DNA of 64,000 nucleotides from Schmidtea polychroa. Its lineage: Eukaryota. The DNA lies in contig CM097885.1 in the NCBI GenBank assembly GCA_044892525.1, forward strand, positions 18,726,001 through 18,790,000, read 5' to 3'. Position numbers and translations under genes: made by a program. Below, in pieces: positions 29,580-61,107 of the stretch (position 1 is its first letter; the number at the start of each line of letters is the position of its first letter). Below the pieces are notes generated by a model. It searched no databases, had not been told where the DNA came from, and saw nothing but the letters and a program-made list of their open reading frames with translations.

Positions 29580-30365
29580 CAGGGTTATTCGTTATTATAA
29601 ATACTTTTATGCAAAATTATAAATACTTTTATTCATTATTATAAATACTTTTATGCAAAATTATAAATACTTTTATGCAAAATTATAAATACTTTTATTC
29701 ATTATTATAAATACTTTTATTTATTATTATAAATACTTTTTGTTTGAACCGCATGTCGCGCAAAATTAGAAAACCATTGACTTTGGATGGGTATAATTTC
29801 ATAATAAGGCTTTCCAATGATGTTTCAATGACACTGAAAAATATATCGGAAATTTCAGGGTATTCCATAACAACAATAAGAAGAGCTATTGATGATCATC
29901 GCCAACAACGAGTATTTGTTAGCTCGGGCACAAAATTAAGGAACAAAATTAAAGAAAGAAATGCGGTTTTTACTACAGAAGAGTTGGTGATTCATAATTT
30001 AGTTTCATGCAATAATCTTTTGACGCAATCAGAAATTTCAGAATCAGTAAAGATTAGTACAAATAAAAAATTGTCGCAGTCAACAGTCTGCAGGAAATTA
30101 AAAAAATGCAATATAACGAGAAAAAGAGTTTCTTTAATTTCTGAGGAAAGAAATAACCAGGATAAAATTGACGCACGATCGATTTATGCCTTTGAAATTT
30201 CTAGGTTTGAGCCTGAATCATTAATTTTCCTGGATGAAACGGGATTTAATCATCACACAACACGCACATACGGATATTCAATTAAAAACTCCCCATTTTA
30301 TACAAACGTTAGAGCGAATAAGGGAGTGAACAATAGTGTAATGTGTGCTATTTCTGTAAGAGGCC
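29580..30365 (+). mobile_element. 5' part of a Tc1/IS630-type transposon with truncated transposase
   Basis: TA|CAGGGTTATTC terminus; ~22-bp subterminal tandem repeats 29590-29740; ORF with HTH-like regions (LSQSTVCRKLKK..ITRKR) and first catalytic motif IFLDETGFN; later D and E absent. Confidence 0.88.
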
Positions 30366-30905
30366 CTGTAAGAGACCCTGTAATTTATGAATGTGTTTAT
30401 AATTATGCCAATAAATAGTTATGTTCGTGATGAAATACGCTCTAAGCGAGATTCCGGTGATGATGTAATGCACACAGTTAGTATTTACAAAGTGTATGCT
30501 CTACTTCATACAATTGGTAAAATTGATTTATATGAAAGAGAAATTGTTCGAAATATTAAAGAAAAATTATGTTCCATTGACCTGGATTTCGAACAACAAA
30601 TGCAAACTGCTGCTTTTCATCGGTACTTGAAAAGAGTTATAAACTACCAGATGATCAAGTTATTACAATTGGAAATGAAAGATTCATATGTCCAGAAGCT
30701 TTTTTTCAGTCATCATTCTTTAAATGGAAATTACTGGTATCCATGAGACGACTTATAACAGTATGATCAAATTCGATGTGGATATTCGTAAAGATTTATA
30801 TAGCAATACAGTTTTATCAGGTGGTTCGACAATGTATCATGGTATTGCTGATCGTATGCAAAATGAAACATCAACTTTGACTCCATCATCAATGTCAATT
30901 AAACA
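30366..30905 (+). pseudogene. Intronless, internally deleted actin pseudogene fragment
   Basis: [11 protein letters not shown] / [18 protein letters not shown] / [24 protein letters not shown] / (shift) [20 protein letters not shown] / [42 protein letters not shown]. Confidence 0.93.
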
Positions 30906-32282: not shown

Positions 32283-32479
32283 AATTTCGATTTATTTCGA
32301 TTTATTTCAATTTATTTCAATTTATTTCAATTTATTTCAATTTATTTCAATTTATTTCAATTTATTTCAATTTATTTCAATTTATTTCAATTTATTTCAA
32401 TTTATTTCAATTTATTTCAATTTATTTCAATTTATTTCAATTTATTTCAATTTATTTCAATTTATTTCAATTTATTTCG
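32283..32479. repeat. 10-bp tandem repeat (TTTATTTCAA)n
   Basis: About 19 units. Confidence 0.97.
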
Positions 32480-32521
32480 TTTACTTTTCGGTGTTTCAGA
32501 AGGTGGGTAAATTTCGAACAG

Positions 32522-32820
32522 CTACGTTGGCAGTGGTCGGATTTGTGCGGTTACCGCCGCGTCGATGACCCGCTGGTTCAGTTTGGTCTCCAATGCGCGT
32601 ACTTGAATCTTCAGAGCGTGGATTTCGATTTGATCTTGGTCTGCTTGGGACTGAAGCTGTTGGATTTGAGTCATTCGCTTTTTCATCTCGGCTGGACTGA
32701 ACCAAGTGCTTTCGAGCTCCCGACATCGCCCCTTAAATTTCGCGACTCTGGCCTGAAGGCCTTCCACTTGTTTTTGGACTTGCTCCCGGTCCTTCCTTAG
32801 GTTCTTGAATAATTTGAACA
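32522..32820 (-). CDS. Unknown coiled-coil protein exon, 'TWFSP' family (C-terminally shortened)
   Basis: RCRELESTWFSPAEMKK; strongly similar to 54011-54417; begins at acceptor ttgtAG|TG. Confidence 0.65.
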
Positions 32821-33160
32821 CTACAATTTAAAGAAATTATATATAGACACATGCAGATAATAATCATCTATTCGATATCAAACGTTCAATCTTATTCTAT
32901 ATCATTGGGTTCCCATCAAATAATAAAGTCCTCAAGACCAGTTTAAAACGAAAATCGTAAACGATTTTTTTAATATCCATCTAAAACCCAAGTACCATAA
33001 AAGGAATCAACGAAATAAACACAATATTGTTTTATTAATGGTAATCAATTCAAAACTCAAATATCCAAATGAAAATCAATGAAATGAATATAACAGAGAA
33101 AATCTCTCTGCGTAAAGAAACAGGAATCACCATCCATAGTCATAACAATCCTTGTGTGGC

Positions 33161-33452
33161 TCATAGGTCAGCCTTCCTAGGTCTTCCCCGTTTCTTAAAA
33201 GGGGTGGATCTGACTTCGGCCTCTTCGATCGGTGTTTCGGCTGCCTCTGCGCGAAGTTGGGCTTCGATCACCCGGAGCTTGTGTTGAGCGAACTCGATCG
33301 CCACGATGACCTGGTTGCGGGCCTTTATTAGCCAACCTCAGTTCACGACCTCAGTTCCACTCGTGGATCTTGTACTACACGTATCTGGTCCTGAGTCGGA
33401 TAATTGCTTCATCATACTGATCTTCCTCATTGCAGTTACTGAGTTGAGACAT
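33161..33452 (-). pseudogene. AT-hook protein paralog with stops and a frameshift/deletion
   Basis: MSQLSNCNEEDQYDEAIIRLRTRYV*YKIHEWN*G / IKARNQVIVAIEFAQHKLRVIEAQLRAE..TPFKKRGRPRKADL*; aligns with 54695-55060. Confidence 0.8.
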
Positions 33453-34968
33453 TTCTACATTGTTAAAGTTATAATTCCGTTTGTTGTCAGATTAATAATA
33501 ATTAAAACTCAATCTCAATTACGTCGAGTTCAAGTTAAATTAAAGTCGAGTTTAATTATCTATCTTTTTTTTCTTTTTGAAATTAATTTTCCCAATTAAT
33601 AATGAAAATAAAATTAATTTAAAACATTTAAATTATAGTAATTCATAAATCATTTCTAAAATTGCTATGTTAATTTATGTTTGTTCTACTGAGAGGTTTC
33701 AGCAAAATTATAAGCTCAACAATTTAAAATTATAAATTTTGGTTGTAAATAACTATTTTCAACAATTTACGAAATCAAACATACTTTTTCATGATGACCT
33801 AATGGTAGTGAAATTGCATGCATAAAACTATGGTTTTCACAAATTCAGAAGGAACACGGCAGGAAACCCTCGAGAATGATATCTATCCGCATGAGAGCTA
33901 TCGGTATCGCAGGAGTATCCAAGTTTGTGTATAATACAAAGGTAAAATTTTCTTTTCTTAAAACTTATAATGAGATGTCTAGGAAGAATTCCCTGTAGGA
34001 AGAATTCCGAATTAAAACTCTGGAATTGCCGATATGTATATCGAATTGTTTAGATGAACATTATTTCTATCAGTACTTTAAAATTCGAAAGGTTATTTAC
34101 GGAAAAGGACGACTGTCTTGTGAATTTAACATTTGTTTACCATAGTTAGAGATTTATTTAAGACCAATTACTAAATTATCAACTCATGAATTTGAGATAC
34201 CTATTAAGAATATCCACTTTGTTTGATTTACAATATTACACAACCAAATATTAGGGGAAATTTACCAATTATGATTTTTGTGATTCGAAATACCGATGGG
34301 CAATTACGAATATTAGTGTGATTTAGGCTACTATATAAACTTTGGAATAACCATCTACATTGAATGTTAATTAATTAAAGCACTGTGATCAGCTTACTTC
34401 TGGAGCTTTACTCCGTTTACTGAGCCTTAGTGTAGTGTGATGAGTTGATTTTGAGTTTATTATGTCGATTATTCATGTAACAAAAGTCAATTACGGAAAG
34501 TTGCTTGCTTTCGCGGCCACATTGTGTCCACTACGACGAGCCCTAGTGTTATGTAGGTTGATAATATACTATCGACATATAAATATTATGATAACTCAGT
34601 CAGTTCAGAGTGAGTTTACCGACTTAACTCCGTGGCAGATACCATGAAGTGGTGCGACCTCCACTGACACAAAAAAAAGAAATTATAATTGTTAGACGCA
34701 ATTAAATTCAAGTCTTCTTCAAGCATTTATTTTTATAACAACTTCAAAAATTGAGCCGTTTACTAGAATATTTAAACACCGAGGCATGATAATTATTAAT
34801 ATTAATGTAATTACTGGTCATACATTTAATTGATTTAATTTAATATAATATGATATAATTTAATATAGAATTTAAATATACAAATTTAACAGAAATAATT
34901 ATTTCTACTAACTGATCTCACTTCTACCATTTAACCATAATAATTTTATATAGAGATTTACTAACTCC

Positions 34969-37900
34969 TTACATCCCCCCTTCTTTAAAATGCTTTAACT
35001 TTTCTATATTCCTCGTTATTTTTCTCCCGTTTTCGTCTGTTAATAAATAACTTCTTTCATGATTTCGTTTTATTACTGTGTATGGTCCTTCATATCTCTC
35101 GTGATCTTTGTTTCTAATTTCTTGTTTCACCAATACTTTGTCCCCCACTTCTAAGTTCCTAGTTGTGCCAATTTCTTTCGCTTGCTGTCTTTTAGCCTCT
35201 AATTTCCGCATGATTTCATTTCTATTCACTTCATTATTACTATGCCATTGCGATCTATTAATCTTTCTTCCAAATATAATTTCTGCTGGACTCACTCCAG
35301 TAGTTTTTTGAGCTGTCGCATTTAAAACGTATTCTATATCAGGTATTAATTCTGCCCAGCTTTTTTTAACTCCTTCTCTAAGTGACGCGTTAATATAGTC
35401 TCTTATAATACGAAATTGTCTTTCAATTACACCATTAGTATTATGATGATACGGACTCGAAAATATCAACTCAATTCCTGCTGCCTTTGCTAGTTCTTTA
35501 ATGCTATTTGCTTCGAAATTTTTTCCACAATCAACATGTAGTTCCTTAGGGGCTCCAAATTTCAATATCCAATTATTTAACAAAACTGCCTTTATTGTAT
35601 TTTCATCTTGCTTTCTAATAGGAGTTAGAGATATGTATTTACTGTAATGATCGATTATTGCACAAATAAATTTTTCTCCTCTGAAGGTTTCTCTTAATGG
35701 ACCGCAAATATCCATGTATATTTTCTCCATAGGTTCTGAAGCTTGAATTACTTGGGTTTTTTCTTTTGACTTTGTAGTTAAAACTTTGTTTTTCTGGCAT
35801 GCTTCACATATTGAAATAGTCTCTTTTACTTCATTTAGCAAATCTTCCATATCAAAATTGTTCCTAATATATTTCATAACTTTTTCTACTCCTGCGTGGC
35901 ATAATAATAAATGTGTTTCCTTAATCGTTTCTCGTCTTTTTGTTTCTGGTATCCATATTTTGTTTTGATTGGTATAGATAATATTTCCTTTTAACATATA
36001 TTTATTATTTTTCCTTTCATGTATTTGATCTTTTATATCTTGTATTTCTGCATTATCTCTTTGCCATTCATTTCCATTATTTTCGGTCATCAATGTTAAC
36101 AATCTAGTTTTTAATCGCCCTGATTTGGGGTTATCATGGTCCATCAAACATTGTACACATTTGCCGCATGTGTTTCTAGACAGCATATCTGCATTCGTAT
36201 GCGCCGTACCTTTTCTGAACTCCATTTTTATGTCTAAACTGCTCAAGTAATTTATCCACGTTTGGAACTGTGCTGTTATCGGCTTCTTTGTCGTTAACAT
36301 AAAAGTTATTGCTTTATGATCAGTGCGCAAAACAAACCGTTTACCTTATAAATAATGGTTGAAATGGCGACAGAAATAATATATAGCCAAAAGCTCTTTT
36401 CGTGTTATACAATATCCTCTTTCATGGCTACTCATTGCATGGGATCCACATGCAATAACGTGTTCATGCCCCATTTCATCTCTTTGTGATAATACAGCTC
36501 CAATTGTATCAAAGCTTGCGTCTGTATCTAATATGAATTCTTTCTTGAAATCTGGAAATACGAGAATTGGCGCTGTAGTCAACGCCATTTTCATTTCTTC
36601 GAAAACTTTCTCACATTCCTCAGTCCAGATTATTTTTTCACTATTGCTTCCACATATGCTTTCTAGCGCTCTTGATTTTGTTGCATATTCCTTAATAAAT
36701 CTCCGATAATAGTTACATATACCTAAAAAGCTTCTCAAATTCTTTATACACTTAGGCCTCTGAAATGATTTAATAGCCTCAATTTTACTTTGATCTGTCC
36801 GAATCCCCTGACTGTTAATAATGTGCCCTAAAAACTTTACTTCGCTCTTTAATAACTGACATTTTTCTGGGTTGATTCTCAATTTAGCTTCCCTTATTTT
36901 CTCTAGAACTTTTCCAAACACATTGTAATGTTCTTCAATTGTTCTTGTAAAAATTAAAATATCGTCTAAATACACCATAACTCCTTCTTTCCATAGATCT
37001 TTCAATATTTTTGTCATTAATTCTTGGAATGTACCCGGTGCCGCCGCAATGCCAAAAGGCATTCTATTAAAACAAAATTGCCCTTCTTTAGTAGAAAATG
37101 CTGTCTTTTCTTGCGATTCTTTGTCCGATTTCACTTGATAATAAGCGTTCCCAAGGTCTATAGAACTAAAGTACTTAGATCCATGTAATGTATCTAGAAT
37201 TTCTTCTACATTCGGCATAGGAAAAGCTTGTCTTTCAGTAATCTTATTAAGCTGTCTAAAATCTAAACAAAGTCTGATATCTTTTTTGTCTTTTTTCCAC
37301 ACGCATACTAACGGCGTATTCCAAGGTGAATTACATCTTCTTATGATATCATTATTTTCTAAATTTTTTATAGCAGCATTTATTTTCTCCTCTAAATTGA
37401 TGGGTTGCCTTCTGGGTTTTATCATAATTGGCCCTTCTTTTGTGATGATTTTATGTGCAATTAAATCAGTACATCCGATATCCCAGTTATTAGCCATAAA
37501 AACACTTTTATTGTTTTTAACAATCTCTAACAGTCTTTTATTTTCGTTTAATCTTAGAATTTCTATTGCTTTTTGACTTCTCTCGTTATCTGTAATCTTT
37601 TCCCCAAATCTAGCTTCTATTTCACACACAAATTCATTATATCCTTCTTCATTTTGCTTGATGTAGTTTAATTCAATTCCAAACTCTTTCTGCAATTCCA
37701 CTCCGCCTATTTTATCTGGAACAATATTTTTAACTATTATAAATGTTATTTTTCTTTCCATATTACCAATTCTAACATCAATATATATTTTTCCGATTGT
37801 CTCTAATTTACTATCATTTGCACATCTTAACATCTCATCTGTTTTTATGATTTTCACATTCACTAATTTTTCCACAACTGCTTCTGCCATTACATTTACT

Positions 37901-37989
37901 CTTGCTCCTGTATCTAGTAAGCATTTCATTCTATACCACTGAATTTCAAGAGTTGTACTCGGTCTACCTTGCATTTTGTCATAACTCAA
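34969..37989 (-). pseudogene. Gypsy pol (PR-RT-RNase H-IN) split by one in-frame TAA at 36346-36348
   Basis: LLDTGA; RLCLDFRQLN; YLDD; DTDAS; HFNHYL*GKRFVLRTDHKA; integrase H..H..CEAC, MDICGP, HVDCG, GVIERQFR; GPY. Confidence 0.95.
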
Positions 37990-38360
37990 TTTCGGTCGTT
38001 TCCATTCATCTTTAGTGAAAATATTTTGCTCCTCTGATATTTCATTAATCTACCCAATTTCCTTTCTCTCTAATTTATCTTCTGCCTTCTTAATAAATTT
38101 ATAAACTTTTTCATTTACTATTTTATTATTATATTCTGCTTCTTCAATTTCATTATACTCTTCTTGATTCTTAGGATTATTATTATTATTTATTAAAGAT
38201 CGATCAGCATTAAAATAACTATAACATTTAAAATTATTTAAAGGAAACTTTTTAAAATTACAAATTTTATTACATAAAGGTTCTACATTATTATTTATAT
38301 AAGGATTATTTACATTATTAAAATTATTATGACCAATATTTACATCAATATCAAAATTAC

Positions 38361-38978
38361 CTAGTATATTGCTCCGATCATTGCCTCCCGTGTCGAAGCA
38401 TGTACTTTTGGGTGCTGAATATCCTCATATTTGTCTTCTGCATCATCTGAATACTCAAGTGGCATCGTCTCATCATTAGGTTCAATTGCTGCAATTGTTC
38501 TTCCTGGATTGTTGATCTTTTGTTGATAGCTTGTGGTTCGATGGGCATAATAATTATTGTTTCTCATGTTTGAATTAGTTTGAAACTTCCTTCTTTCCAA
38601 ATTTGTATAGCAGTCAATCTCCTTATGTCCACGTAAGTGACATCTCTGGCATTGAATCGTTGAACATTCTCGCCGTACGTGGCCTTCAACTCCGCATGCA
38701 AAACACGTCATTTTCTTTTTCATTTGGCATTCTCGACTCACATGACCAATTTTCTTGCATGTCCAGCATTCCAATTGTCGGTTACTGACGTTTTGCTGCT
38801 TGAAATTATTATTTCCGTTTACCATTCCTCTTTGAGCAACATCTCTGTAGCTTCTGTAGTTTTGAACAACCGGTGAAGTCTTCACAACCTTAATATGGCC
38901 CATAATTTTGTTTACCTTTTCTAATTTCTTTATTGTCGCTTTTATTTCTTCTGATGTTTTCAAGTCTTTTTCAAGCAT
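38361..38978 (-). CDS. C-terminal part of Gypsy gag with three CCHC zinc knuckles
   Basis: CWTCKKIGHVSREC, CFACGVEGHVRREC, CQRCHLRGHKEIDC; the ATG lies at the LTR/gag deletion junction. Confidence 0.9.
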   Translation of the reverse strand: MLEKDLKTSEEIKATIKKLEKVNKIMGHIKVVKTSPVVQNYRSYRDVAQRGMVNGNNNFKQQNVSNRQLECWTCKKIGHVSRECQMKKKMTCFACGVEGHVRRECSTIQCQRCHLRGHKEIDCYTNLERRKFQTNSNMRNNNYYAHRTTSYQQKINNPGRTIAAIEPNDETMPLEYSDDAEDKYEDIQHPKVHASTREAMIGAIY

Positions 38979-40928
38979 TTATTTTTATAACAACTTCAAA
39001 AATTGAGCCGTTTACTAGAATATTTAAACACCGAGGCGTGATAATTATTAATATTAATGTAATTACTGGTCATACATTTAATTGATTTAATTTAATATAA
39101 TTTAATATAATATGATATAATTTAATATAGAATTTAAATATACAAATTTAACAGAAATAATTATTTCTACTAACTGATCTCACTTCTACCATTTAACCAT
39201 AATAATTTTATATAGAGATTTACTAACTCCTTACAATAATATTGATAAATGCATGTCAGGCAGTGACCTGCAGTTGTCAAGGCTGTGGGCTCTATGACAA
39301 TGATGATTTTACTTTCAAATAAGACTCAAGACTGGCTTAGTTCGTGTATCAGAATACGAGCACTACGACCTGAGTCACTCTTGTGGAAAGGAAAAGAAAA
39401 AAAACATCGCAATATTAATGTATTAGAATTATAATAATACAAACATAATCGACAAATATCCTTTAACTTGGATTTTAACTTAGATTTAACTTGGATTCAC
39501 AATCGACAAATATGGTTCAAAACTTTTTGGCATAAAGAGAATAAGTTTGTGACGAAAATGTGGCGGTATATATACCTATTCTTGTGTGTTCGAGTACGTG
39601 TGTATGTATTGTTGCATAAAACAAACTCGAAATCTTTTTAATTCTAGAACATTTTATTTTTGATTTGTGATGATTTTAATGGCAATTCTTGTGCCATAAT
39701 TTTTGTTTTTATTTTTAAAATTTTATTTTTTAATTAGTTTTCGTTAAATTTGCCTCCATGATGGATTTAGGCATTTCCAGAACATTCCATATTAAATTAA
39801 AGTTAATTTTTATTTTAGAATCGTTTTTCTGAATTTTTTTCTTGAATTTTTATTTTTTAAACTAATTTATTTATTTTTATTAACTTTATTGTATTGAATG
39901 GCTTCCATGATGGATTTCGCCATTTTTATGAATTGTTCTGGATTTTTGGCTAGAATTTAGTATTTCTACAGTTTTTCTACATTATTCAAGTTTGTTTTTG
40001 TATTTTTATGTTTCTCTGTTATGTTTGAGTTAATTTCCTGTGATACATCTTGCATTTATTTGATTTTATTTGTAATTTAAATGTTTTTATTTTCTGTTAT
40101 TTTTCTACTAATTATTATTGTTTATTTGATGTTGTCTATTTTTATTTACGTAAACTTACTGCTGGGTGTGCATGTTATGTACCACCACATTTCATCACTT
40201 TTTCCAAGATTTTGGGTCTAGAATGCAGTTCTAGCCCAACACATGCTTATTAAATTACTAACTTAGAGGGTGTACGAATTTTTTTCGCCGAAGCTTTCCA
40301 CATATAGACACCCGAGTGTTAGGGCATGTTTCCTTCACTAGCTATCATCCACAGTGGGCACAAGGTGCAACAGTGTGAAATGTGCAGATAAACTGCTTAC
40401 AACTCCTCGTAAGTCCCAATGTAATGTTTTACTGACTTCCAGTTTAGCTTGGTGACTTGAGACAAAAAATTTTATGATTTTATTCATTGAAAGTATTGTC
40501 GTCTAGTGAAACTAGAAAACAAAAATCAAATTAGTGGTATGTCATAAAACTAATAAAAAGATTCTTACTTTCAAAGTCAAAGCGCCTTATTACAAAATTT
40601 AGAAATTTTGGTATACCAAAAAATTCTGCACTAAATTGTGACCGTTTATATACTCTAATTTTTGTTTGCAAGTATGTGTGCGTGCATTGATGCAGTAAAT
40701 TAAATTCGAATTATTTTAATTATATTTAATTTTGACTCTAATTTTTATCAATTTTTTATTATTTATGATTTTATTTAATTCGTTTTGCTTTCTTTGATTT
40801 TACTTCACTTAGGACTATATCTGTGTGCATTTCGATCGCAACCCACGTTTACACGAGTAACAAATCAGCTTTTGCAAAAAATACGAAAGGTATAAATGGT
40901 AAGATGATGAGGGTACAGTAAGAAAATA

Positions 40929-41133: not shown

Positions 41134-41734
41134 TTTCAGGTTGAGTCTCATCGCTCCTTGTGAGCGGGGGATTTTGATGTCGGAAACATTGAGCAGAGAA
41201 ACACAGAGACTCCAATTAGATGAGTGGGAAGAAAGGTCTTTCGAATCCGGATCCGGTCTCTACTCCATGCGCTTTGACAAACGTACAATGATAATTTTAA
41301 AAAATCCGTATTTTAAGAACCAGTTCTTCATACCAAAATTATTTTAGCAACAGGCTTGACAGGACAGTGCGAATCCATAGCAGCACATTACTATATGCAA
41401 ATAGCCATTACTAAAGTTAAACTTAATAACGATTTTAGTTAAATGGATGAAAGCTTTTGAAGAAATTGTTTATAATAGAAAATTTAAAATAGAATTTATA
41501 TTTCTAACTCTTAATAATAATTTCCAAATTTCTGATTGTAAGTAAATTCTTAATAAATCTAAAATATATATTAATATATTAAGATAATTTTATTTCTAAA
41601 TTAAATTACGATAAATTAAATTTCTAAATTTGAAACATCATCAATTTAAAATTATTTTATTTTATTAATTTTTATTATTTTCGTTTGTTTAAAAATTAAT
41701 ATTGAAGTATAAAATTAAAATATATAAATTAAAT

Positions 41735-42922
41735 ATGACTGCCGACTGGAATTATGACTCTGATGATGATCAAAAGAAAAATAATTTATCTAGTACTTCA
41801 CGGAAAAAGTCAGGTTCAAGTAAATCACCTGAGTCAAAAGTTTTTTCAGATACTGATGGTGCAAACAATTTATCTAAGGGAATTAGCAATCGTTCCAAAA
41901 CTAATCCAACTCCTGATCCATCAACTTGTATTGGAATATTCGGATTATCGAAAAAAACTAGCGAGCGTACATTATGGAAGACTTTTGGGAATTTTGGTAA
42001 GATTAAAAGTGTATCACTTATTGTAGATAAGTTCACGAAGGAATCACTTGGATTTGCATTTATTAATTACGAAGTGCTAGATTCCGCATCAAATGCTATT
42101 AAAGAAACAAATGGAATGACTTTGGATTCTAAAGTTGTTCGGGTTGATTATAGCATAACAAAAAAGGCTTATACGCCAACTCCTGGCAGTGGTTATAAAG
42201 GAAAAATTATCAGCCGGGGAGCTAGAGATATGAAAAAAAATTTTAAAAGAAAATATTCACCGAGGTCCCGATCAAGAAGTACAAGCAGAAAGCGGTCAGC
42301 AATGAAATATTTAAGTTCAAGACATTCACCCGTTGCTCCAATGTATATTTCAGATAAGAAAGATTCATTTAGAAGATATGAATCTAGAAGGCATTCTCCA
42401 GAACCTCGCTTCGAAATGCACTATTCCTCACATAGAAATGTCAGAGACTACTCTCCAATAAATAGAGAACAAAGAGGCTTCTCTCCTAGTAGAGATGATG
42501 CAAGAAATTATTACTCTGATAGACCGATTTATCCAACAAGGAATTATTCTCCTCCAAGAGATTTCCGTCGAGGTTATTCTCCAAGAAATGATTTAAGAGG
42601 TAACTCGCCATTCAAAACAAAATACAGTGAGTTTTGTCCCAGTGAAGATATGAGAATCGGTTTTCAGCCTATGCCTAATGATATAAATGACTACTCTATT
42701 AGGCAAGTGAGGGAGTTTTCTCCTGCAAGAAATGGTGGACATGTTTATTCCTCAGTTAAAAACTTTAGGAATATCAGCCCTATGAGGAAAGGTGTTAGAG
42801 TTTATTCTCCAACCAGGGAGTTAACCCCGGTTAGGTATGGGTACAGACAATATTCTCCCGTTAGAGTTGAAAAATATAAAGATCGCATCGCGGTTGACGA
42901 TAATCAGCAATTTTTTTACTGA
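41735..42922 (+). CDS. tra2: Transformer-2-like RRM / RS-rich splicing regulator, intronless, 395 aa from first ATG
   Basis: PDPSTCIGIFGLS..TSER.L..F..FGKI..V.LIVD..SLGFAFINY..NGMTLDSKVVRVDYSITKKAYTPTPG is the Tra2-specific RRM plus linker; RS tract follows. Confidence 0.9.
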   Translation: MTADWNYDSDDDQKKNNLSSTSRKKSGSSKSPESKVFSDTDGANNLSKGISNRSKTNPTPDPSTCIGIFGLSKKTSERTLWKTFGNFGKIKSVSLIVDKFTKESLGFAFINYEVLDSASNAIKETNGMTLDSKVVRVDYSITKKAYTPTPGSGYKGKIISRGARDMKKNFKRKYSPRSRSRSTSRKRSAMKYLSSRHSPVAPMYISDKKDSFRRYESRRHSPEPRFEMHYSSHRNVRDYSPINREQRGFSPSRDDARNYYSDRPIYPTRNYSPPRDFRRGYSPRNDLRGNSPFKTKYSEFCPSEDMRIGFQPMPNDINDYSIRQVREFSPARNGGHVYSSVKNFRNISPMRKGVRVYSPTRELTPVRYGYRQYSPVRVEKYKDRIAVDDNQQFFY

Positions 42923-50203: not shown

Positions 50204-53200
50204 TTAATAATAATTATAATAATAATTAAACATTTACCAACAATCGGTTACTAAATATTTTTAACTAGGTGCTAACAAATAAGTACCAAATACTTACAAC
50301 TAGATACCAAGTACTAACTAACTCTCAAACAACCACATACTTACAACTAACTACTTACAATCAACTAAATATTCTTTATTATATTTTATGAAATGTATTT
50401 TTTAAAATTAATTTTTTATCTATATTCAAAAATATATTTAATTACAATCAGTAGAAAAACCTTTTCAAAATGTCTAAATTTAGCAAAAATGTTGATTTTC
50501 ATCAAAAAACCACAACTCAACCACTTTAAAACACCACGTGAAATTCAAAATAATTTAAATTACAATGAAAGACTAATGAATTCTAATTTACAAAACATTC
50601 TTCTTTTAAATGATAACTACTGAATTATTATGACAAAGTAAAAATCACATTCAATAAATACTTATTGTTGATCAGTTTTATTATATATACTCTGAGTTTA
50701 TCCGACAGGATGTTTTGACCCCCCTAAGGGTACAGGTCGTAAGGGTATTAGTCGTAAGGTTGCTGGTCGTAAGGATATTGTTAACTCTCAACCCCCACCT
50801 ACCCATTAACTACCTAACAAGTACTAACAACCAAGTCTCAAACAACTAAATACTAAACACTTACAATCAACTAACAACCAGGTACTAAGCATTATCAACC
50901 TACAACTATATAACAACAATCAGTAAACAACACTGTACCAACTACCAAATACAAGATACCAACAACTTAGTACCAACAATCAACTAACAACACATAAAAA
51001 TAATAGCAATTAAATACAAAATATTCTTCATCACATACAATATCTTCTTATCAAAATCTAAAAAGTCGACCAACTACTTACAACCAACAACTATGTACTA
51101 ACAAATTAATCTTTAAAAGAAAAATACTCATCACTTGAAAATTAGATGGAAAATTAATTGAACTCAAGGCATCAATAACTAGGTAAAAATTGATTAAATT
51201 ATTGTAAAAATTTAAATTATTCAAAATATACCAAATAATTATTATAAAAATTAAATTAATGGACAAGAAAAAATTCTAGTCATTAATCATCCAGTAAATA
51301 AAAAAAAATATTGATCATTCAAGTTAATATGAATCAACTAAGATAATAAATTAATAAAAATTTTGAAATAAGATCTAGTAGATAATTGATTTAGATTGAA
51401 TAAATTAATTGAAATAAAATTAATTTTAAGTATTTTTTTTAAAAGTACTCAAATTGATTGACTTATTTCTCAATATATTCAAAAAATCAGTATAAATTCA
51501 TTACAATTATCAAAGTCAGCAATCTACAATAAAAATAATTATCATTAAATTCCAAAAGAGACTAGATAGCTAATGATAACATCTAACAAACCAGTATTCA
51601 AAAGATTCCCATCGAAACCCTTCCCTCATTAAAAGCAACCGACTATATCTTTCTTAAAATGAAATATTTCCCATATTAACCGACTATATCCCTTTAAAAA
51701 TCATATATTCCCATCTTAACCCATCCCTCATTAAATTTAACCGACAATATCCCATCTTATCCGATCTCTCAGCAAATAATTCTACCCTTTTAAACATCTA
51801 TCCGATTATATCCCTTATTTTCCCTAAAGATTTCACCCACTTGAGCCCTTTAATATATATCAATCCTCTTAAAAACCTCAGAGAACTTCAAAAATATGAC
51901 TTTTAATTAATTGTTATAAAACCAGACAAATAGTAAGAGCCCATTAAAAGATCAAAATTCACTAAATTTTCTACAAATATTTACCATCAAATAAAAATAC
52001 ATCCAATTATCAAGAAATTAATTAAATTTATCTTAGAATTAGCATTAAATTATTAAATATTCATTCAATAAACATGAAATTTGCAAAAATGTTAGAAATC
52101 CACAAAAATAATAGAAATTTACAAAAATCAAAGAAATTCACAAAAATGATAAAAATTCATGAAAATGATAGATATCTACAAAAAATTAAGGAAATCCGCA
52201 AAAATAATAGAAATTCACAAAAATGATGGAAATTAATGAAAATGATAGAAATTCATAAAAATGATAGAAATTCATAAAAATGATAGAAATTTACTTGAAT
52301 AAAACCATCAACTTTAAAAATTATCAATACCTTAAACATCAAATTTGCCTAAATAATCATTCAAATAAAAGCATTAAATGATCAGTACCCTTGCGACATG
52401 TTGAATGTGAGTAGTACCCTTGTGAGCAATACCCATAGGGGGACAGAATATTTTGTCGGATAAACTCAGAGTATATATTAATTAACTCATTCAAATTTAT
52501 CATTGAATTAGTCAAATTATCGTAAATTTCGATAAAAAATCTAAAGTGGTAAGCAATGTAAAGAGAAATATTCTTTAAACTTTGATAGGACCAAGGAGAC
52601 ACCCTCACTATAGTCAGAATAATCCATGCTTTTTTATTGAAGACCGCCTTTTTCTATTGAAATTCTCAGGACCAAGGAGACCCACCTCACTATAGTCTGA
52701 AAAATCCTTGGCTTTTTTAGTGTAGACCACCTTTTTCTATTGAAGTTCTCAAGACCAAGGAGACCAACCTCACTATAGTGCGAAAAATTCCATACTTTTT
52801 TAGTGGTAGTCGGATTTTTGTATTGAAATTCTCAGGACCAAGGAGACCCCCTCACTATAGTGTGAAAATTCTATGCTTTTTTAGTGGTAGTCGGACTTTT
52901 GTATAGAAAAAAATTTTTTTGTATTGAAAATCCCAGGACCATCGAGACCCCCTCACTATAGTCTGAAAATTCCATGCTTTTTTAGTGGTAGTCGGATTTT
53001 TGTATTGAAAAAAATTTTTTTTGTATTGAAAATCCCAGGACCATCGAGACCCTCTCACTATAGTGTGGAACAATTGCGTAATAAAAAAGTTGCCGCAAAA
53101 AAAAAGTTGCCGCAGGGGGGTTTGCGGCAGTGGGCTCCTAACTACCTACTAGTCACTGCCACAGAAATTTACTATAAAAGCGAGAAGCAAAATTCATTTA

Positions 53201-53616
53201 GCAGAAACATTTGTTCAAGCAATTTTGCTTAGAATAAAATATCAAATTCAAAGAGAGATTAAAAGCTATAAAGCTTCTTGGTGAATTGATCACAGAAAAG
53301 GGAATCCAACCAATATTTTGAACCGTGAAGTTATTTGAATATATTTAATTTTCAATAAAAAATTTAATTGCACAACCCGGCCACAAGAACCAGCATTTCT
53401 GCCTATCCTACTCGTTGGAGATTAAATTTTCAGAGGGTTTAGTATAGGTAACGCTAGATCAAACTTGATCTAGTCGATCGCGCAAACTTCGGGAAATCCC
53501 TCCTTCTTGTCCCAAACTTTAAATACAGTGCTATGAGCAATTAGAGGGGATTCTGTAGGGACTCAGAACATTACTACCAGTGGTCTCAAGAAGTAATTTA
53601 TTTTATAATCTATATT

Positions 53617-53822
53617 GGTGGGTTACTGGTGGTCGAGTGTTTAAGTGCTGTTACCAGCGTAACCCAGGATACAACATTATTTTTCCGCTTGGTACCCGTT
53701 GAGTAATCAACGTTGGTACTGTACCAAGGGGTGAGTACTCGCAAAAAGTGAGCGCATCAAGGCACTATAATTGTCGAGTACTCTATGGGTTCACGGACTA
53801 CCGTTAGAAGGTGTGTGTCCGA
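53617..53822 (-). ncRNA. Putative structured non-coding element, copy A
   Basis: Stems GAGTACTCG/CGAGTACTC; GTACC-AA-CGTTGA(ttac)TCAACG-GGTAC; TGGGTTA..CTGGT/ACCAG-TAACCCA; motifs shared with 59984-60250. Confidence 0.55.
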
Positions 53823-54010
53823 TTTATCAGGTCCCTTATCAAAATTGTTTTCCCAACCTTACGCACAAACTCTCACTTCTCAGGCAATCACAAAAGGTAT
53901 TGGATATTATTTTAATATTACAAAATCTGTGTTATTTTAATGCTACAACAAGGTACAAGACACACTACCAAATGTACACAAAACAACATCTCGTAACAGT
54001 TCAGATCGGC

Positions 54011-54417
54011 TTATTGGCGGAGCCTGGCCTTTAGTTTCTTTAGTTTCTCCCGAATGTTCCGTCCAAGCCGCTTTCGTTTAGGCTTACTTTCAACTACTGG
54101 GGGATATATTGTTGCGAGCTCCACGGCCAGTGGCCGTATTTGTCTTGCCACGGGCTCCTGCACCAACTGCTCATTTCGCGCAGTTTCGAGCGCCCGCACC
54201 TGTAGTTTCAGGGCGCGGATCTCCATTTGGTCTTGTGCGGCCTGTGCCTGCAGCTGGAGGATCTGGGTTGTTTTCTTCTTCATTGCTTCGGGACTAAACC
54301 AGGTCCCCTCAAACTCCCGACATTTTCCTTTCAACTTGTCCACCCGGATTCGGAGTTCATCGGTTTGCTGCTGGGCCTGCTCACGATCCTTGCGTAGGTT
54401 CTCCATCAATTTATACA
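54011..54417 (-). CDS. Unknown coiled-coil protein exon, 'TWFSP' family, basic NLS-like C-terminus
   Basis: Open frame KCREFEGTWFSPEAMKK...SKPKRKRLGRNIREKLKK; preceded by ctaat + polypyrimidine + AG|TG acceptor; GC-rich island. Confidence 0.72.
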
Positions 54418-54694
54418 CTAAAAAGAGAGAAAAAAAATTAGTTTCCATTACATCCAAAAAGAAAGTTAAAACCAATGACTAGTAAAATTAATGAATCGAT
54501 ATTAGCATTTCTACTGAGGTATCTTCATACTCTTCCATCTATCAAGTAATGCACAGAACAAAAGAAAACACTTTATTCGAGAATAAACACCCGACGTCTA
54601 TTGGTATACAAAACGAAATTAAATTAAACACAACGACTGCTAATAGTTCATTCATATAAACGTGAGTTGTCTAAGTTAAATGAATTGTCCACAA

Positions 54695-55060
54695 TCACAA
54701 TGGTTGCTTGCGGGGCCTCCCCCTCTTCCGCGGAGTTACCTCGGCATTTTCGAGCTCCTCTAGGGATACCCCTTCTCTCTGGACCCGAAGTTGCAGTTCC
54801 AATCTCTTCAGCCGGCTCTGAGCGATTTCCACATCAACGGCCGCTTGATCTCTGGCCTCTCGGAGTGCGTTGTTCTCCGGCTCCGTCTTCACCCATGCCG
54901 GGGCATCCGGTTCTGGACCACTTCTGATAACTGGACCAAAGTTGTCAAGGTCCAATCCACGATTCCAGTCATGGATGCGGTACCAAATATACCGCGTACG
55001 GAGCCGGGTAATCATTTGTCGGTGGTTCTCTTCATCGCTGGAGTTACTTGATTGTGACAT
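54695..55060 (-). CDS. 121-aa unknown protein with C-terminal AT-hook (KRGRPRK)
   Basis: Intact ATG-stop ORF; canonical AT-hook core; paralog at 33161-33452. Confidence 0.75.
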   Translation of the reverse strand: MSQSSNSSDEENHRQMITRLRTRYIWYRIHDWNRGLDLDNFGPVIRSGPEPDAPAWVKTEPENNALREARDQAAVDVEIAQSRLKRLELQLRVQREGVSLEELENAEVTPRKRGRPRKQPL

Positions 55061-56099
55061 ATCTATGATTATCCAAAATATAAGACTGTTGATTATTACA
55101 TAGAAAAAAAATTGTTGAAACTCTAGGCTTAAGATTAAATTTCTACTAGCAATCCATAGCCAGGGAGTTCACCTAAGGGACTTTACTACAACATCTATCT
55201 TATCAAAGGCATAACCCGTTGATACCTGCCTCAGTGGTGACTTAGCCGACAACAGTCAAACAGAACAGACAACCCCCAGAGAAAAAATCTAAAATTTTGT
55301 ATTTTCGTCTGCGGTTTATTTATATTCATTATAATATTCGACCTGACGACGTAGTTTCTTCTTAAAATTGGAATTAAGAAGCAAATTCGATTGTTTTAAT
55401 GGTTCAAAACCATTAATTGATGGTTTACATTATAGTATACTATTTAAAATTTCTAAATTATCTAATTTAGATTTTTAATTTATTATTAACCCAATTGGCT
55501 TCAAAGAAAATCTTCGTCGACGGAGAGATTCGTTGTTGAATCGTATTCCAACGCCTCTTCGTCAGCGAAGCCGTTCATAATAGTCTAATCCGCTTTTTCA
55601 TATATTACTCCTCCTTCTTTAGCTTGTTCAGAATCTACTCCATCAACCACATTCCGTCGGAAATAATTGCTTTATCTGTGACTGGCTCCTCAGCATTACG
55701 GAAGATTTCGTTGTTGGTTGGTACGAAGAATGATCGATCTGAGAGATCTCCCTTCACGGTAGATTATTTTAAGATATGGTAACTCAGGTCTAGTTTAAAA
55801 TTTAACATTCTTTGTCAAGATTAGCAACAGTGATTATAATGATGGTATTTATGATTAATAATGATTATAGGGCACGAGTCCCAATATTAACTAGCATGCC
55901 AGGGTTCATGGCAATTCTACTTATAAAGCGCATTATGTAGTCCTACTTTGAATCACCTATTATAATTTTTAAAACCCAAACAAAAAATTTTTAGATATAC
56001 TTTGTGGATGGATAATTTCGAATTTTATTTTGATCCTAAGAATCAACTATGCTGTATGAGTAGGTGTTTATGGATTATGTTGCGGAGATTGGGAGTAGG

Positions 56100-57490
56100 T
56101 ATACTTTATATTTGTATGCTTATAAATTATGTTTTAGTAGATAATGATAATGGATGAGTATATCGTTATAGATTATATTTCCAACTTGAAATTAATAAAT
56201 TGTGTTCCTGAACATGAAAATAGTGGCAATTTCTGGTTATGTGTAAAATATATTTTAACTTGTTGTTCGTGCTTTGGAGTGGGGTGGTTACAAATTGTAC
56301 TTATACTTAATATATAGCCATGGTTTATAGTTGTATTTTAGAAAATTATAATCTTAACATTTCAACTTAATTATACTTTATAAATAGTTTAAATTCTTTA
56401 CACTTATAAGTTACGTTTTCAACTTGGAAGTTATTTGTATTTTATAGTGGGGAATTATACATTATATGTTGTACTTCATCTATGATCATAGTTTATAGTT
56501 ATATATAAATTATAATTTTAGCCTTAAACTTTAGTTATACTCTATAAATAGATTATAATCTTTACACTTATAAATTATGTTTTTAACTTGAAATTTATCT
56601 ACATTTCATAGTGGGGTGATCATAAATTAGATTTTCTATTTAATATATAGTTATTATAGTTATACATTTATAAATTAAAATTTTAACATTAAAATTTAAG
56701 TATACTTTAGGAATAAATTATATCTTTTACGCTTGATAAATAGTTATAGTATTAGTTATGGGCTTATAAATTTTATTTCAACTTAAGATTTAATTGTACT
56801 TTACGAATGGATTATATTTTATAATTATGATTTTATAAATTATATTTTTAACATCGAAATCCAATTACATTTCCTAATTAGAGGCCTATAACTATATTTC
56901 GAACTTCGAAATGATTATATTTTTGTAATTCTTGGGTTTAAAATTTATATTTCTATACTTAGTAAATAATTATAATTTATGATTATGGATTTGTAAGCCA
57001 TATTTCTACCATTAACGCTTAATTATACTCTATACTTAGATGCTTTATATTTATATTTCCACACTCAGGAATGACCATACTTCATAATTATGGGTCTAAA
57101 GATTATATTTTTACTCTCAATGAATAATTTTAGTTCCAATTACCAACTTGTATATTATATGTTTAACATCAAAGGTTTGGTTACACTTTACATTTACATG
57201 TATATAGATTACATTTCTAAATTCGAAAGTGATTATAATTATGAGATTATAAATTATATTTTTTACATCAAAGATTTAATTATACTCTATAATTAGAGGT
57301 TGGTAAATTATATTTTCGAACTTAAAAATGATTATATCTCATAATTAAAGGTTTATAAATTATACTTTTACGTTTAATAAATACTTATAGGTTATAATCG
57401 TGGATTTATCAATTATATTTTCAACACCAAGAATTTGGTAATACTCTATAGTTAGCCGTTTATAGATTACATTTCGGAATTTAAAAGGAG
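56100..57490. repeat. Degenerate AT-rich tandem array (tataaattatattt..aactt..aattatact motifs, ~40/80-bp period)
   Basis: Recurrent motifs by eye; period not measured. Confidence 0.6.
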
Positions 57491-58992
57491 TTATATACTA
57501 CAATTAGGGGTTGCTTCCATGGCCCCACTGTGACCACTTCCACAAACCTTAATGTTATGTGCTAAGTCAACCCTTTACGGCTGACCTTTAATAAATACAA
57601 AGAGTCAGACGGAGGTTTTCCTCGACCTAACTCCATGGCAGGACCATGAAGTAGTTCGACCTCCGAAGGACCCGAACAAAAAAGGGACGGTATAATAATA
57701 GATCGATATAATATTAATAATGCATGTCTGCATGTCCTATGAATTTAAATTTTAATAAATTGGATGCAGGACCGAACAACGACGCAGTAATACCAGTACG
57801 CCATTGAACATTCGTATATCATGGAAAAAATCAAAAGCAAGAGACATCAAAATATGCAATTACTTTAATTTTAACCTGAATAAATCATCACTACAATAAA
57901 AATGAAAAATAGATCCTCAGCCCAATAAAAATGAAAAAATAAATTATCAATATTATAAAAATGAAAAAATAAATCATCACTACTCACTATTTGTGTTGAC
58001 AAGATTTTTCTCAAAAATTGGCATAAAATGGTGATTGAATTATGCCCGAACTGTATACTGTGAACATAGCACCTGAAAATCCAACGTAGTGAGAAAACGC
58101 CAGATCGATTTTGATTTTCATGGAATAGGCAAACACAAGTGAACAGATTGTGGGTTCGAGTGTCAACACTACATGCAGATACATACCAACGATAACGTAA
58201 TAGTAAGCCCGTGACAGTTCTACACAAATCCATCGATGAGAAACCATTGGGTTATCTACTGCAAATCACCCGCAGTAGCACTCGCCAGGGAATCGTTCCA
58301 TATGCCATGCTCAACATTTTGTCATAATTTTCCGTTATCTGCCATAACAGTAGGTGAGTTCACCAGCCGATAATCTTGGGTTAGCAAAATCATCCCGTCA
58401 TACTAATATGTTAATTTCCGATTTCTGATACAATTCTCTGTAAATAATGGAGCTTGATGCATGCGACAGATAGTTAATAGCGTACGATCAAAAATCTTGA
58501 GTACACATTTTGGAATTACGGAATTTTAGCATTATAAGAGTTTATTATTAAAATTGATTAAATTTGTGAATTTGTTAAATTTTCATGTCTAATAATTGTC
58601 TAGAAAGGGTGAAAAGAGAGTTTACGAGACAAACCCGACTAATTTTCCTTCTAACTAACAAGTCTTTAAACATATTTGTAATGTTTCCGAGAAAATATTT
58701 AAATATTATTGTATTCACATAACAACAGGGCCTCTTTTTCGATAATAAATCACTATACCTAATGAGGCGATGCCCTATGTTACTGACCCGTTTTCTGTTA
58801 TTAAATTAGACAGAATGGTAAAGCTCGATTGTCTGGGGGGAATTTCTCTTGTCCGCCGACCTGTTTTTCTTTTCTTGTCTGAATAGTATAAGCAAATGGT
58901 ATGAAATTCGAGACAGTTAATGACTGGTTAATTCGAAATGATGGCTTTGTAAATCTAGTCTTCTTGTGATTATCTTTATTTCTTCTTTGCAG

Positions 58993-59605
58993 TTACCAGA
59001 TATGCTACCAGGTACAAAGACCACTCTCAGACCCTGCTTTTCTTGCGCAGACAAGAATGCTATAATCAAAGACCTACAAGCCCAGATCGGTCGATATAAG
59101 AGAAAGATCGACGAGTTGGAAGGTACATGGTTTAGCCCAGTACAGATGAAGGAGGTACAAAAGAAACTGTACCGTAGCGAACACTGTCGCGACGCTCTAA
59201 TCACGGAAAGCAGATCTCAACGCAGCCTAATAAAAGAGCAATCGGAGGCTCTCCACAAAGTCTATCTACAGGCAGCTACCACCCGAAAAATCGTCCGCAT
59301 CCCAATTCATGGAGCGGACAACTTCTTTCGATCCGTCACCTCCAGCCAAGAAGCCTTGTCGCGAGTGTGTGGAAGCCGACCTTTCATCCAAGCCTACTGA
59401 TGTGATCTTCACCGGAACCAGCAAGGTGTTGCCACCTATCGCGTCTACGCCTGCGGCGCAACCAAATACACTGCTTGCTTCAAAACCCAAGCGACGGCAA
59501 CTATCGAGAGCCGAGCGCAAGAAGAAACAACGAGAGCGAGTAGCTGCTAAGGAGAGAAAACAATCGGCAAATGCTCCTGTTAACGCAAACAGTCTGCCAC
59601 TATAA
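58993..59605 (+). pseudogene. Divergent 'TWFSP' family gene split over two overlapping frames
   Basis: Acceptor ttctttgcAG; KIDELEGTWFSPVQMK; second frame ends ASKPKRRQLSRAERKKKQRER, like the tail of 54011-54417. Confidence 0.65.
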
Positions 59606-59983
59606 TCGATTTGACGACAGGGATCCCAGGGCGTATCATCTCCGCTGCTGGCGTTACCTGGGATGAAAATGCGTCGGAATTTTTCGACTTGGAGGAACTT
59701 TTAGCCGACACCGAATGGGAAAAGTGATGACCCCTCGGCGGTGTGACAGTTTTGTTAGTGGACATCCGCAACGGGCTATTGATCTTTCGATGTCGTTGTA
59801 TACATCTTGTGTGTAAATCTGTTTTGTGTTTATTATCATCTAATAAATCATATTTTTATTCTCGAATAATTCCTTTGCGTGATGTTTTGATGTGAATTTC
59901 CTATAATTATATGATGAAACTCCTGAGACTCGATGATGTACTAAACCCTTGTATCCAGCTTAGACACGGCGAAAGTATTAGTT

Positions 59984-60250
59984 GGACGTAAGCCCTTCTA
60001 ACGGCAGTCGGGAGAAGGAAGTCGAGGCCTCAGAAAGGAGTAGTCCTAAGGCAGGGGCTCACCTGCTTTCTGGCGTCTCGCCGGCATAGTGCATTACCAA
60101 CGTGAAGTGATTCACGGGTACTATGTTGGAGTATAGATTGTGCAGGGTTCTACCCCGAGTTGACGAAAGAGTAAACGAGGTATGTGGAATGGGCAATCAT
60201 CCCTTAGACGAGAACGTAAAGTGGTTTAGGTCAACCGAGTAGTACCCCAG
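59984..60250 (+). ncRNA. Putative structured non-coding element, copy B
   Basis: CCTTCT/AGAAGG; CAGAAAG/CTTTCTG; CCGGCATAG..TACC-AA-CGTGAA(gtga)TTCACG-GGTA-CTATGTTGG; GTTGAC/GTCAAC. Confidence 0.55.
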
Positions 60251-60539
60251 CATTATAAATTCTTTATCATTTGGAGTAAATTTGTTTGAGGCAAAAATAA
60301 TTAAAGGAGTCATAATAGAAATATGGTTATCATTTAACCAATTAAGGGGCTTATTAGTTAGAAATATATAAAATAAAGTAACAATTATTTTCTAATTTAA
60401 TGAGATGATCATTGGGCGTAGTATATCTTTGCGAGAAATACATAGGTTAAGATGTTTGAGTAACCAAAACATGGATATTTTGTGCGATCAATTTATGAAT
60501 ATTGGTTAATTTAGTCATATAAAATAATAATAATAATAT

Positions 60540-60900
60540 AATAATGTAATTTAGGAAAATACCATTGAAAGATTTATCCATTCGATAACAATATTCCTTT
60601 AATAGATTAACTGATATTCAACCTATTTAATTTCTAGAAATCTAATTAAAATCATAAATTTCCTTCAATAAAGATCACTTTTCTTTATTTGTTTTAAGTC
60701 AATATTTCTCAAGTTTTGTCACTGATATCCACACAATGAATAAAATAACTTCTTAAATAAAATAATTTAAAGCAATAACTATTGATATCAATTAATTTTA
60801 AAGATTTCAAATATCTCATTGTCAAAACTAAGTAAATTGATCATTAACCATTAATAAAACAGTGGATAATTAATAAAAACTGGTTCTATAACATAAATTT
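60540..60900. repeat. Fragment homologous (reverse) to ~6920-7190 of the Maverick-like derivative
   Basis: aactgatattcaacc.atttaatttct..aatctaattaaaatca and aaatttcc..caataaagatca match the reverse complement of 7045-7130. Confidence 0.6.
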
Positions 60901-60916
60901 ATTTGCAATAATTTGC

Positions 60917-60967
<51 letters not shown>

Positions 60968-61107
60968 TCCCGCGCGTGTTACTTTGAAATAATACTTTGA
61001 AAGAAAATATTGAAAATTCAAAAAATAATAATAATAATATTAAAAATATTTATGCAAAGCATGTGCAATAATTTTTTATGTCTTTGTTAAATAAGTAAAC
61101 TTAAGTG

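Follow-up and report, generated by a model that had tools for sequence, protein, structure and literature searches.

Two diverged copies of one structured element lie in the stretch of DNA analysed here, a 64,000-nucleotide (nt) window of a 781-Mb eukaryotic assembly with a G+C content of approximately 27%. These copies, A and B, form the U5-side termini of long terminal repeats (LTRs) that belong to two families of giant LTR retroelements. We consider it probable that, as a 5' leader domain before the primer-binding site (PBS), they act in cis in priming, packaging, or both. The original prediction, made from the letters of the window, had described a multi-stem non-coding element downstream of "TWFSP" genes, under selection as an RNA fold and possibly belonging to a mobile element. 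The link to a mobile element was correct, because the domain belongs to the LTRs of giant LTR retroelements, and selection on an RNA-type fold is supported by pairing and covariation above shuffled controls in both alignments described below. The placement has changed: instead of being tied to the 3' end of a TWFSP gene, the element sits at the LTR terminus, on the leader side of the PBS. The two domains are:

Copy A, 53616-53829, minus strand: whole structured U5-side domain, ending at the LTR terminus ...CCCACCA (53616).
Copy B, 59975-60252, plus strand: whole structured U5-side domain, ending ...CCCCAGCA (60252).

Both termini are sharp and were set by alignment, of six copies for A (53616) and eight for B (60252), and the real limits are slightly wider than first reported. 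A covariance model, seeded with a MAFFT alignment of 29 diverged copies and repeated-module structure, matches copy A at 53668-53829 (64.9 bits, E 3.7e-15) and copy B at 59975-60146 (152.4 bits), and these are its only matches in the window. The primary sequences of A and B have largely diverged, and the ordered motifs first listed for them are found in both. One of these, the 16-mer CCTTCTAACGGYAGTC, has two exact sites in the window, which are A and B, and four sites at up to 3 mismatches against 0.26 expected.

Both copies belong to abundant repeats. Searching the genome with copy A gave 2569 first-look candidates, and the 40 that were scored are 94-100% identical to it; for copy B there were 1650 candidates, with 83-100% identity among the 40 scored. 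The two ends of the A-type LTR are both high-copy (2569 and 2138 first-look candidates), and its start, TGTTGGGCTAGAAC, occurs 3372 times in the genome. Full A-type units are 4.5-5 kb long, have sharp ends (5'-TGTTGGG...CCCACCA-3') and contain two short frames only, with no reverse transcriptase or transposase inside. Across families the 3' ends read CCCACCA, CCCAACA or CCCAGCA, mirrored by the 5' TGTTGGG, and 4-bp target duplications (CTTC and CTAG) surround two solo A-type LTRs.

LTRs also occur as same-strand pairs. The first pair has 5' ends at C1:10228972 and 10259633 and U5 hairpins at 10234036 and 10264702, with 25.5 kb between its 5.2-kb LTRs; the element is 35.8 kb long with the target duplication ATAA, and its LTRs are identical at 1404 of 1410 positions (99.6%) over their last 1.4 kb. 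The second pair (C1:10680369 / 10711048) has 25.1 kb between its members. At 7 of 35 A-type loci, common sequence continues past the LTR end, and these loci represent five independent places because L006-L008 share one tandem array. The common sequence consists of an 8-nt spacer and then the 23-mer TGGGGGCTCAGCCGGGATTTGAA (a site of the form TGGGGGCTCAGCCGGG...), and all 23/23 nt of this primer site can pair with the 3' end, CCA included, of a tRNA-Pro(UGG) whose gene lies in the same genome. A comparable site occurs in a second LTR family, whose LTRs end ...AACCAACA. We adopted the LTR reading because of the shared flanks at 7/35 loci, the tRNA-Pro 23-mer and the same-strand LTR pairs. An earlier reading as a Ginger-like DNA transposon, which would have short inverted ends and a 4-bp duplication, was given up in view of the primer site, the paired LTRs and the internal flanks held in common. 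The first internal frame, approximately 700 nt after the primer site, encodes 160 amino acids with a C3HC4 RING finger at the end (L006, L032, L034, L039 and L041; in L032 it is shortened by another LTR fragment).

Some side observations concern the same repeats. In the tandem array (C1:39.32-39.47 Mb), A-type 5' LTR ends with the primer site recur every ~15.8 kb, which suggests that part of an element underwent segmental duplication. Another long tandem array (C1:130.90-130.94 Mb) repeats the 3' end of tRNA-Pro(UGG) at intervals of ~475 bp, and one of its units (L099) is a tRNA-Pro gene by ARAGORN. The A-type LTR start forms a near-perfect hairpin, GGGCTAGAA...TTCTAGACCC, directly after TGTT (L017/L025, L019/L026 and, in the window, at 40241), and a 4-kb piece (L097) is another LTR start. 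Extra tRNA-Pro pairing in U5 was considered and rejected, the matches being short; GGGGCUCA in copy B equals 8 nt of the PBS start but is not kept in A.

The domain is more conserved than the LTR that carries it, at 95-99% identity within families versus 82-90% for the remaining LTR; in the A family, the terminal 206 nt are 98-99% identical versus 82-90% over ~1.5 kb. Between families, the fold recurs in thousands of copies whose sequences are much diverged. The pattern TACCAACG-N8-16-CGGGTA has 2493 genome sites against 3 for its reversed control, and a hairpin pattern that excludes the A-type stem has 227 sites against 5, with CGTGAA/TTCACG, CGTGAT/ATCACG, CGTGAG/CTCACG, CGTGAC/GTCACG and CGTCA/TGACG among its stems. 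Two comparisons of A with B had first suggested a conserved fold, namely a central hairpin that covaries (CGTTGA/TCAACG in A, CGTGAA/TTCACG in B) and an outer stem that is wholly replaced, with three G-U pairs in the B version, and both descriptions are accurate.

Covariation in a larger alignment had been named as a check, and in the alignments made here it exceeds that of shuffled controls. The sample consists of 40 copies picked by hand for differing hairpin sequences from the first 100 listed, 30 pattern-scan loci and earlier loci. RNAalifold, applied to a MAFFT alignment of all 59 diverse copies, returned only 8 pairs because stems are misaligned in it, so the narrower seed and the covariance model were used. 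At E <= 0.01 the model gives 102 matches (91 distinct) in 334,619 bases, including 11 rows that lack the search motif and were found by the model only. In the model-fitted alignment of the 91 distinct copies (A4), 88.7% of 3329 cells are paired versus 70.3% when shuffled, 33 of 40 pairs have both-side changes, and the covariation score is 0.448 versus 0.176 (reached by 0/500 shuffles). Sliding the partners by 1-3 columns leaves a covariation of 0.05-0.08.

The paired columns contain 286 G-U/U-G cells versus 88 A-C/C-A cells, which indicates the gene-sense strand, the strand to which the fold was tied from the outset. U-G pairs are conserved in helix P3 (74 and 35 of the 91 rows), and the antisense of copy B folds at -80.3 kcal/mol (z -2.1), the sense strand being 21 kcal/mol better. 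Overall the sense strand is favoured, which fits RNA and, less likely, single-stranded DNA of the same sense.

A and B have a common fold, a five-helix core plus a closing helix, and both are more stable than the shuffled controls that had been called for. The minimum free energy (MFE) of copy A is -62.4 kcal/mol (z -3.7) and that of copy B is -101.3 kcal/mol (z -4.1), with 0/200 shuffles as stable in either case. The helices are as follows:

A helix P1, GGAC..ACC-UUCUAAC-GGU..GUCC, 53796-53819, minus strand: from column mapping of alignment A4.
A helix P2, GAGUACUCG/CGAGUACUC, 53733-53783, minus strand: encloses hairpin P3 (53751-53766); from the MFE fold.
A helix P4, CCCUUGGUAC/GUACCAAG.GG, 53685-53730, minus strand: has the 8-nt internal loop AGUACCAA (53713-53720) and the inner hairpin P5 (53697-53712); from the MFE fold, with loop and register from the covariation column.
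A closing helix P6, GGGUUAC../..GUAACCC, 53619-53666, minus strand: followed by the 3-nt tail CCA (53616-53618); from the MFE fold.
B helix P1, 59985-60009, plus strand: from column mapping of alignment A4.
B helix P2, 60030-60073, plus strand: encloses hairpin P3 (60042-60059; AGUCCU/GGGGCU, with the conserved U-G pairs).
B helix P4, 60081-60129, plus strand: 12 bp with three G-U pairs, internal loop AUUACCAA (60093-60100) and hairpin P5 (60101-60116).
B 3' sub-domain, 60145-60247, plus strand: proposed P6 of GGGUUCUAC..UUGAC (60145-60164) with GUCAA..GUAGUACCC (60230-60247), then the tail CAGCA to 60252; read from the sequence.

Independent MFE folds of diverse copies repeat these modules: P1 (loop UUCUAWC), a long P2 around P3, P4 with ANUACCAA, and P5. 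In alignment A4, P1 pairs are 84-94% paired with GC/AU exchanges, P3 is 96% paired, and both-side changes occur in 9/10 pairs of P2, 11/12 of P4 and 4/6 of P5, whose model-only versions include CAUGGU/GCCAUG. In the closing helix P6, the bases just ahead of the 3-5-nt tail pair with the beginning of the 3' sub-domain. Among 90 rows examined, 63 have a recognisable terminus, and 51 of these have a P6-type closing helix. B-like relatives form such a helix when their 3' sub-domain is folded by MFE, whereas in the MFE fold of the whole B domain the 45 nt at the 5' end pair with the 45 nt at the 3' end. The motif GAACCC recurs between P1 and P2 in many families.

P4 can be drawn in two mutually exclusive registers. 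In one, its 3' strand GGGUAC pairs with UACC and an AA bulge remains; in the other, the partner is a UAC that prolongs the outer helix (UAC/GUA), and ANUACCAA becomes an internal loop. The first-described TACC/GGTA stem with its AA bulge can be drawn, but the rival outer-helix pairing fits better. At the informative column, the outer-helix register has UA in 63 rows, CG in 17, UG in 3 and mismatches in 6, whereas the TACC/GGTA register has UA in 60, UG in 12, CG in 5 and mismatches in 13 of 90. Where the 3' A changes to G, the outer-helix partner changes from U to C in 17 rows and the TACC/GGTA partner changes in 5. By this column the outer-helix register is the better supported, and ANUACCAA would then be an 8-nt internal loop of P4 that looks invariant. 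The ACC/GGU part is invariant, yet it is fixed by the search motif in most rows. A switch between the two registers is possible.

As the terminal, U5-side part of the LTR, the domain falls in the 5' leader of full-length RNA, 8 nt before the tRNA-Pro PBS. RNA from the 5' LTR would carry the 200-280-nt domain immediately ahead of the PBS, and the domain would act in cis on this genomic RNA. There it would give the leader a form from which reverse transcriptase and the tRNA-Pro primer can begin minus-strand synthesis; alternatively or also, it would be a packaging handle for Gag. At the DNA level its last bases (..CCCANCA) also serve as the integrase end. A priming or packaging role seems the most likely, judging by position and by likeness to U5-IR and U5-leader stems, and we infer that the domain is U5 rather than R-U5.

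Several points weigh against this account. On the side of the fold, the 40 diverse copies were chosen for their hairpin differences, the search motif fixes ACCAACG...CGGGT, and the antisense of copy A is lower in raw energy than the sense (-73.0 vs -62.4), with a weaker z-score. The large alignment A4 is fitted to the model's own structure, so the count was repeated on the plain MAFFT seed, which involves no structure fitting. There, 86.0% of cells are paired versus 75.2%, covariation is 0.362 versus 0.178 (0/500 shuffles), and the 22 double-change pairs are not significant, being reached by 31/500 shuffles. On the side of the element, the leader placement is read from genome DNA. An AATAAA/ATTAAA lies 40-200 nt upstream in 57/86 copies versus 46/86 for the reversed control, so the R/U5 border is not placed and the domain may also be at RNA 3' ends. 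Complementarity to tRNA-Pro outside the PBS is short (<=11 nt, including G-U). The gag-pol genes of the giant elements were not seen, the internal region having been read over its first 1.4 kb only. Lastly, no canonical polypurine tract abuts the 3' LTR. The sequence before both 3' LTRs is 95% shared and ends as follows:

Sequence abutting the 3' LTR, ...TATGGGCCCCCGAGTGTTTTA, L100, C1:10259563-10259652.
Sequence abutting the 3' LTR, ...TATGGGCCCCCGAGTGTTTTA, L101, C1:10710978-10711067.

Of the 3372 LTR starts, just 8 have a run of 10 purines directly before them.

The alternative that survives best, which we judge unlikely, is the one offered in the original prediction. It puts the domain within R, or upstream of the poly(A) site, where it would serve stability, export or translation from the 3' end of the element RNAs and of the TWFSP/AT-hook-like mRNAs; it could coexist with a leader role. 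It draws on the TWFSP frames, since the statement that such a frame lies shortly 5' on the same strand is true of A (stop 54011) and B (stop 59605), with a gap of 180-370 nt to the domain. It also draws on the splice-acceptor-like sequence before the LTR-borne frames, as expected of 3' accessory genes reaching into U3, and on the poly(A) site not being placed. However, a TWFSP-like frame is upstream in only 36 of 88 other copies (by tblastn, in copies with at least 400 nt upstream, many of which had ~580 nt). The end of the domain also coincides with the LTR terminus, where U5 lies, and the ATTAAA/AATAAA found 90-140 nt upstream of it in A and B is not above chance across families.

Conservation at the DNA level is more doubtful still. 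The domain would then hold integrase or transcription-factor sites with palindromic arms, or would fold in single-stranded strong-stop DNA. The terminal TG...CA, with CCCANCA mirrored by the 5' TGTTGGG, is certainly a pair of DNA-level integrase ends, the low raw energy of the A antisense points the same way, and plus-strand DNA of the same sense is compatible with the strand evidence. Against this, the helices span 40-120 nt, their sequence is wholly replaced between families with pairing kept, and both the G-U excess over A-C and the conserved U-G pairs of P3 run counter to it.

A more elaborate version of the leader reading, which we regard as a long shot, is a two-state leader switch specific to giant retroelements. 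GGGUAC would pair with either of two upstream UAC(C) sequences, and GGGUU(AC) with either the U5 end (P6) or a post-PBS AACCC. The switch might be flipped by tRNA-Pro or by an element-encoded protein (possibly TWFSP or AT-hook-like), converting a translated or spliced form to and from a priming or packaging form. With a further 83 nt of leader in the fold, the single-sequence MFE predictions for L034 and L039 pair the U5 sequence UAUUCUGGGUU with the post-PBS sequence AACCCGAGAAUA, enclosing the primer site. In these two loci AACCCGAGAAUA is ~45 nt after the primer site, and its pairing with UAUUCUGGGUU competes with P6.

The domain was first reported as belonging to no known family, and this stands: Rfam 15 has no match at gathering scores anywhere in the window, searches at E up to 1 in six other copies found nothing relevant, and at E up to 10 over 53000-61000 the sole match is a chance snoRNA elsewhere. 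A ribozyme had been offered as one option; matches to self-cleaving families are absent even at E up to 10, and on these grounds a non-LTR or Penelope-type element with a ribozyme was also dropped. Membership of the self-cleaving ribozymes or of some other known RNA class, e.g., a tRNA-like 3' end with CCA, is most improbable: the copy A end ...ACCCACCA does follow an acceptor-stem-like 7-bp GGGUUAC/GUAACCC stem, but all Rfam families stay below threshold, the 3' ends of other element families read AGCA, AACA or AAUA, and ARAGORN finds 0 tRNA-like genes in 53000-61000; a tRNA-like end was therefore dropped. Viral and metagenome contigs contain chance occurrences of the bare motif. From 117 and 120 such stretches listed, 80 and 80 were given to the model and none matched (best E 0.51), a result that says little because these collections are largely microbial.

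The fold is present in thousands of copies from many families, shows strong compensatory change and matches nothing in Rfam, which makes it a well-supported candidate for an uncatalogued cis-acting retroelement RNA and firm enough to be put forward as an RNA family. As a precise marker of LTR ends it would help to annotate solo LTRs, and it offers a handle on tRNA-Pro priming and RNA selection by very large retroelements.

Stems adjoining the PBS are known from other elements. Passages of PMC3601003, citing Miller et al. 1997 and Lin & Levin 1997, describe U5-IR and related stems in retroviruses and LTR retrotransposons (Rous sarcoma virus U5-IR; the Tf1 leader structure). Like the U5-IR, U5-leader and U5-PBS stems of those passages, the domain is a structured U5 directly upstream of the PBS, with an inverted-repeat helix at the U5 end (P6, with the PBS 8 nt downstream). 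Like the U5-leader stems, it has a predicted alternative stem between U5 and post-PBS sequence once the leader is included. Unlike the U5-IR systems, it is far larger (200-280 nt, six helices), has its own conserved 8-nt loop ANUACCAA and shares no sequence likeness with them, and its function is predicted only.

The elements themselves may be Burro-like, which we offer as a lead only. Burro (GYPSM1) elements are giant Gypsy-like planarian LTR retroelements with thousands of copies, an internal region of ~25 kb, a total of >30 kb and RING-type accessory frames, according to passages of PMC6431247, and a passage of PMC8532177 calls BURRO1 abundant and active. By these descriptions, to which the likeness is limited, the elements here are similar in copy number, internal regions (25.1/25.5 kb), total length (35.8 kb) and the RING frame after the PBS. 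The same passages are silent on a U5 fold, LTR-borne frames and the primer tRNA.

Turning to the window itself, A and B are parts of head-to-head LTR fragments that abut at 58050/58052, and a third big-LTR copy lies nearby with a compact Gypsy-type element nested in it:

53616-55064, minus strand: 3' 1.45 kb of a solo 5'-truncated LTR ending in copy A, 82-90% identical to full 4.5-5 kb copies.
57511-58050, minus strand: upstream part of that LTR, equivalent to ~669-1195 in a full copy; the LTR lacks its first ~670 nt.
58052-60252, plus strand: solo 5'-truncated LTR fragment of a different family, ending in copy B, 80-89% identical to other copies.
54011-54406, minus strand: LTR-borne EGTWFSP frame of A, 131 amino acids, coiled-coil-like.
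54695-55060, minus strand: LTR-borne frame of A, 121 amino acids, with a weak C-terminal AT-hook-like match.
32520-40241, minus strand: third big-LTR copy, with start TGTTGGGCTAGAAC at 40241 and a TWFSP-like frame at 32520-32826.
34707-39235, minus strand: compact Gypsy-type element nested in the third big-LTR copy.
38364-38978: gag of the compact element, with zinc knuckles.
36349-38049: protease-reverse transcriptase-RNase H of the compact element.
34972-36345: integrase of the compact element.
34707-34973 and 38959-39235: LTRs of the compact element, ~270 bp, 96-97% alike.

The TWFSP and AT-hook-like frames thus sit inside the LTR, upstream of the U5-side domain, and what looked like an RNA gene beside odd TWFSP genes is unified: both are in the 5-kb LTRs of 36-kb retroelements that fill the genome. 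Neither frame has a Pfam family above cut-off, only sub-threshold matches, such as the AT_hook match of the 121-amino-acid frame (E 0.14, 12.6 bits vs 17.4). TWFSP relatives were sought by word-index search, with none at E <= 0.001 among proteins of 72-230 amino acids, and in Atlas, with nothing at 0.9 or above. The nef gene of human immunodeficiency virus (HIV) and sag of mouse mammary tumour virus (MMTV) are 3' accessory genes that reach into U3. The frames here resemble them in being LTR frames upstream of the U5-side domain with acceptor-like sequence before them (...ag|ATATG precedes the 121-amino-acid frame), and differ in having no detectable relatives and in being predicted frames only. 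A protein-coding LTR and the lack of a polypurine tract are side points that deserve specialist attention.

In the third big-LTR copy, a 10-bp microsatellite (~32284-32480) follows the TWFSP-like frame, with no U5 domain found there by the covariance model. Other Pfam-matched frames of the window, at 8069-11144, 14470-15264, 17333-19120, 29711-30415 and 41693-42919, comprise Gypsy remnants (zinc knuckle, DUF7047, integrase), a proteasome-subunit exon, a hAT-type transposase (BED finger plus dimerisation domain), a DDE_3 transposase piece and an RRM protein.

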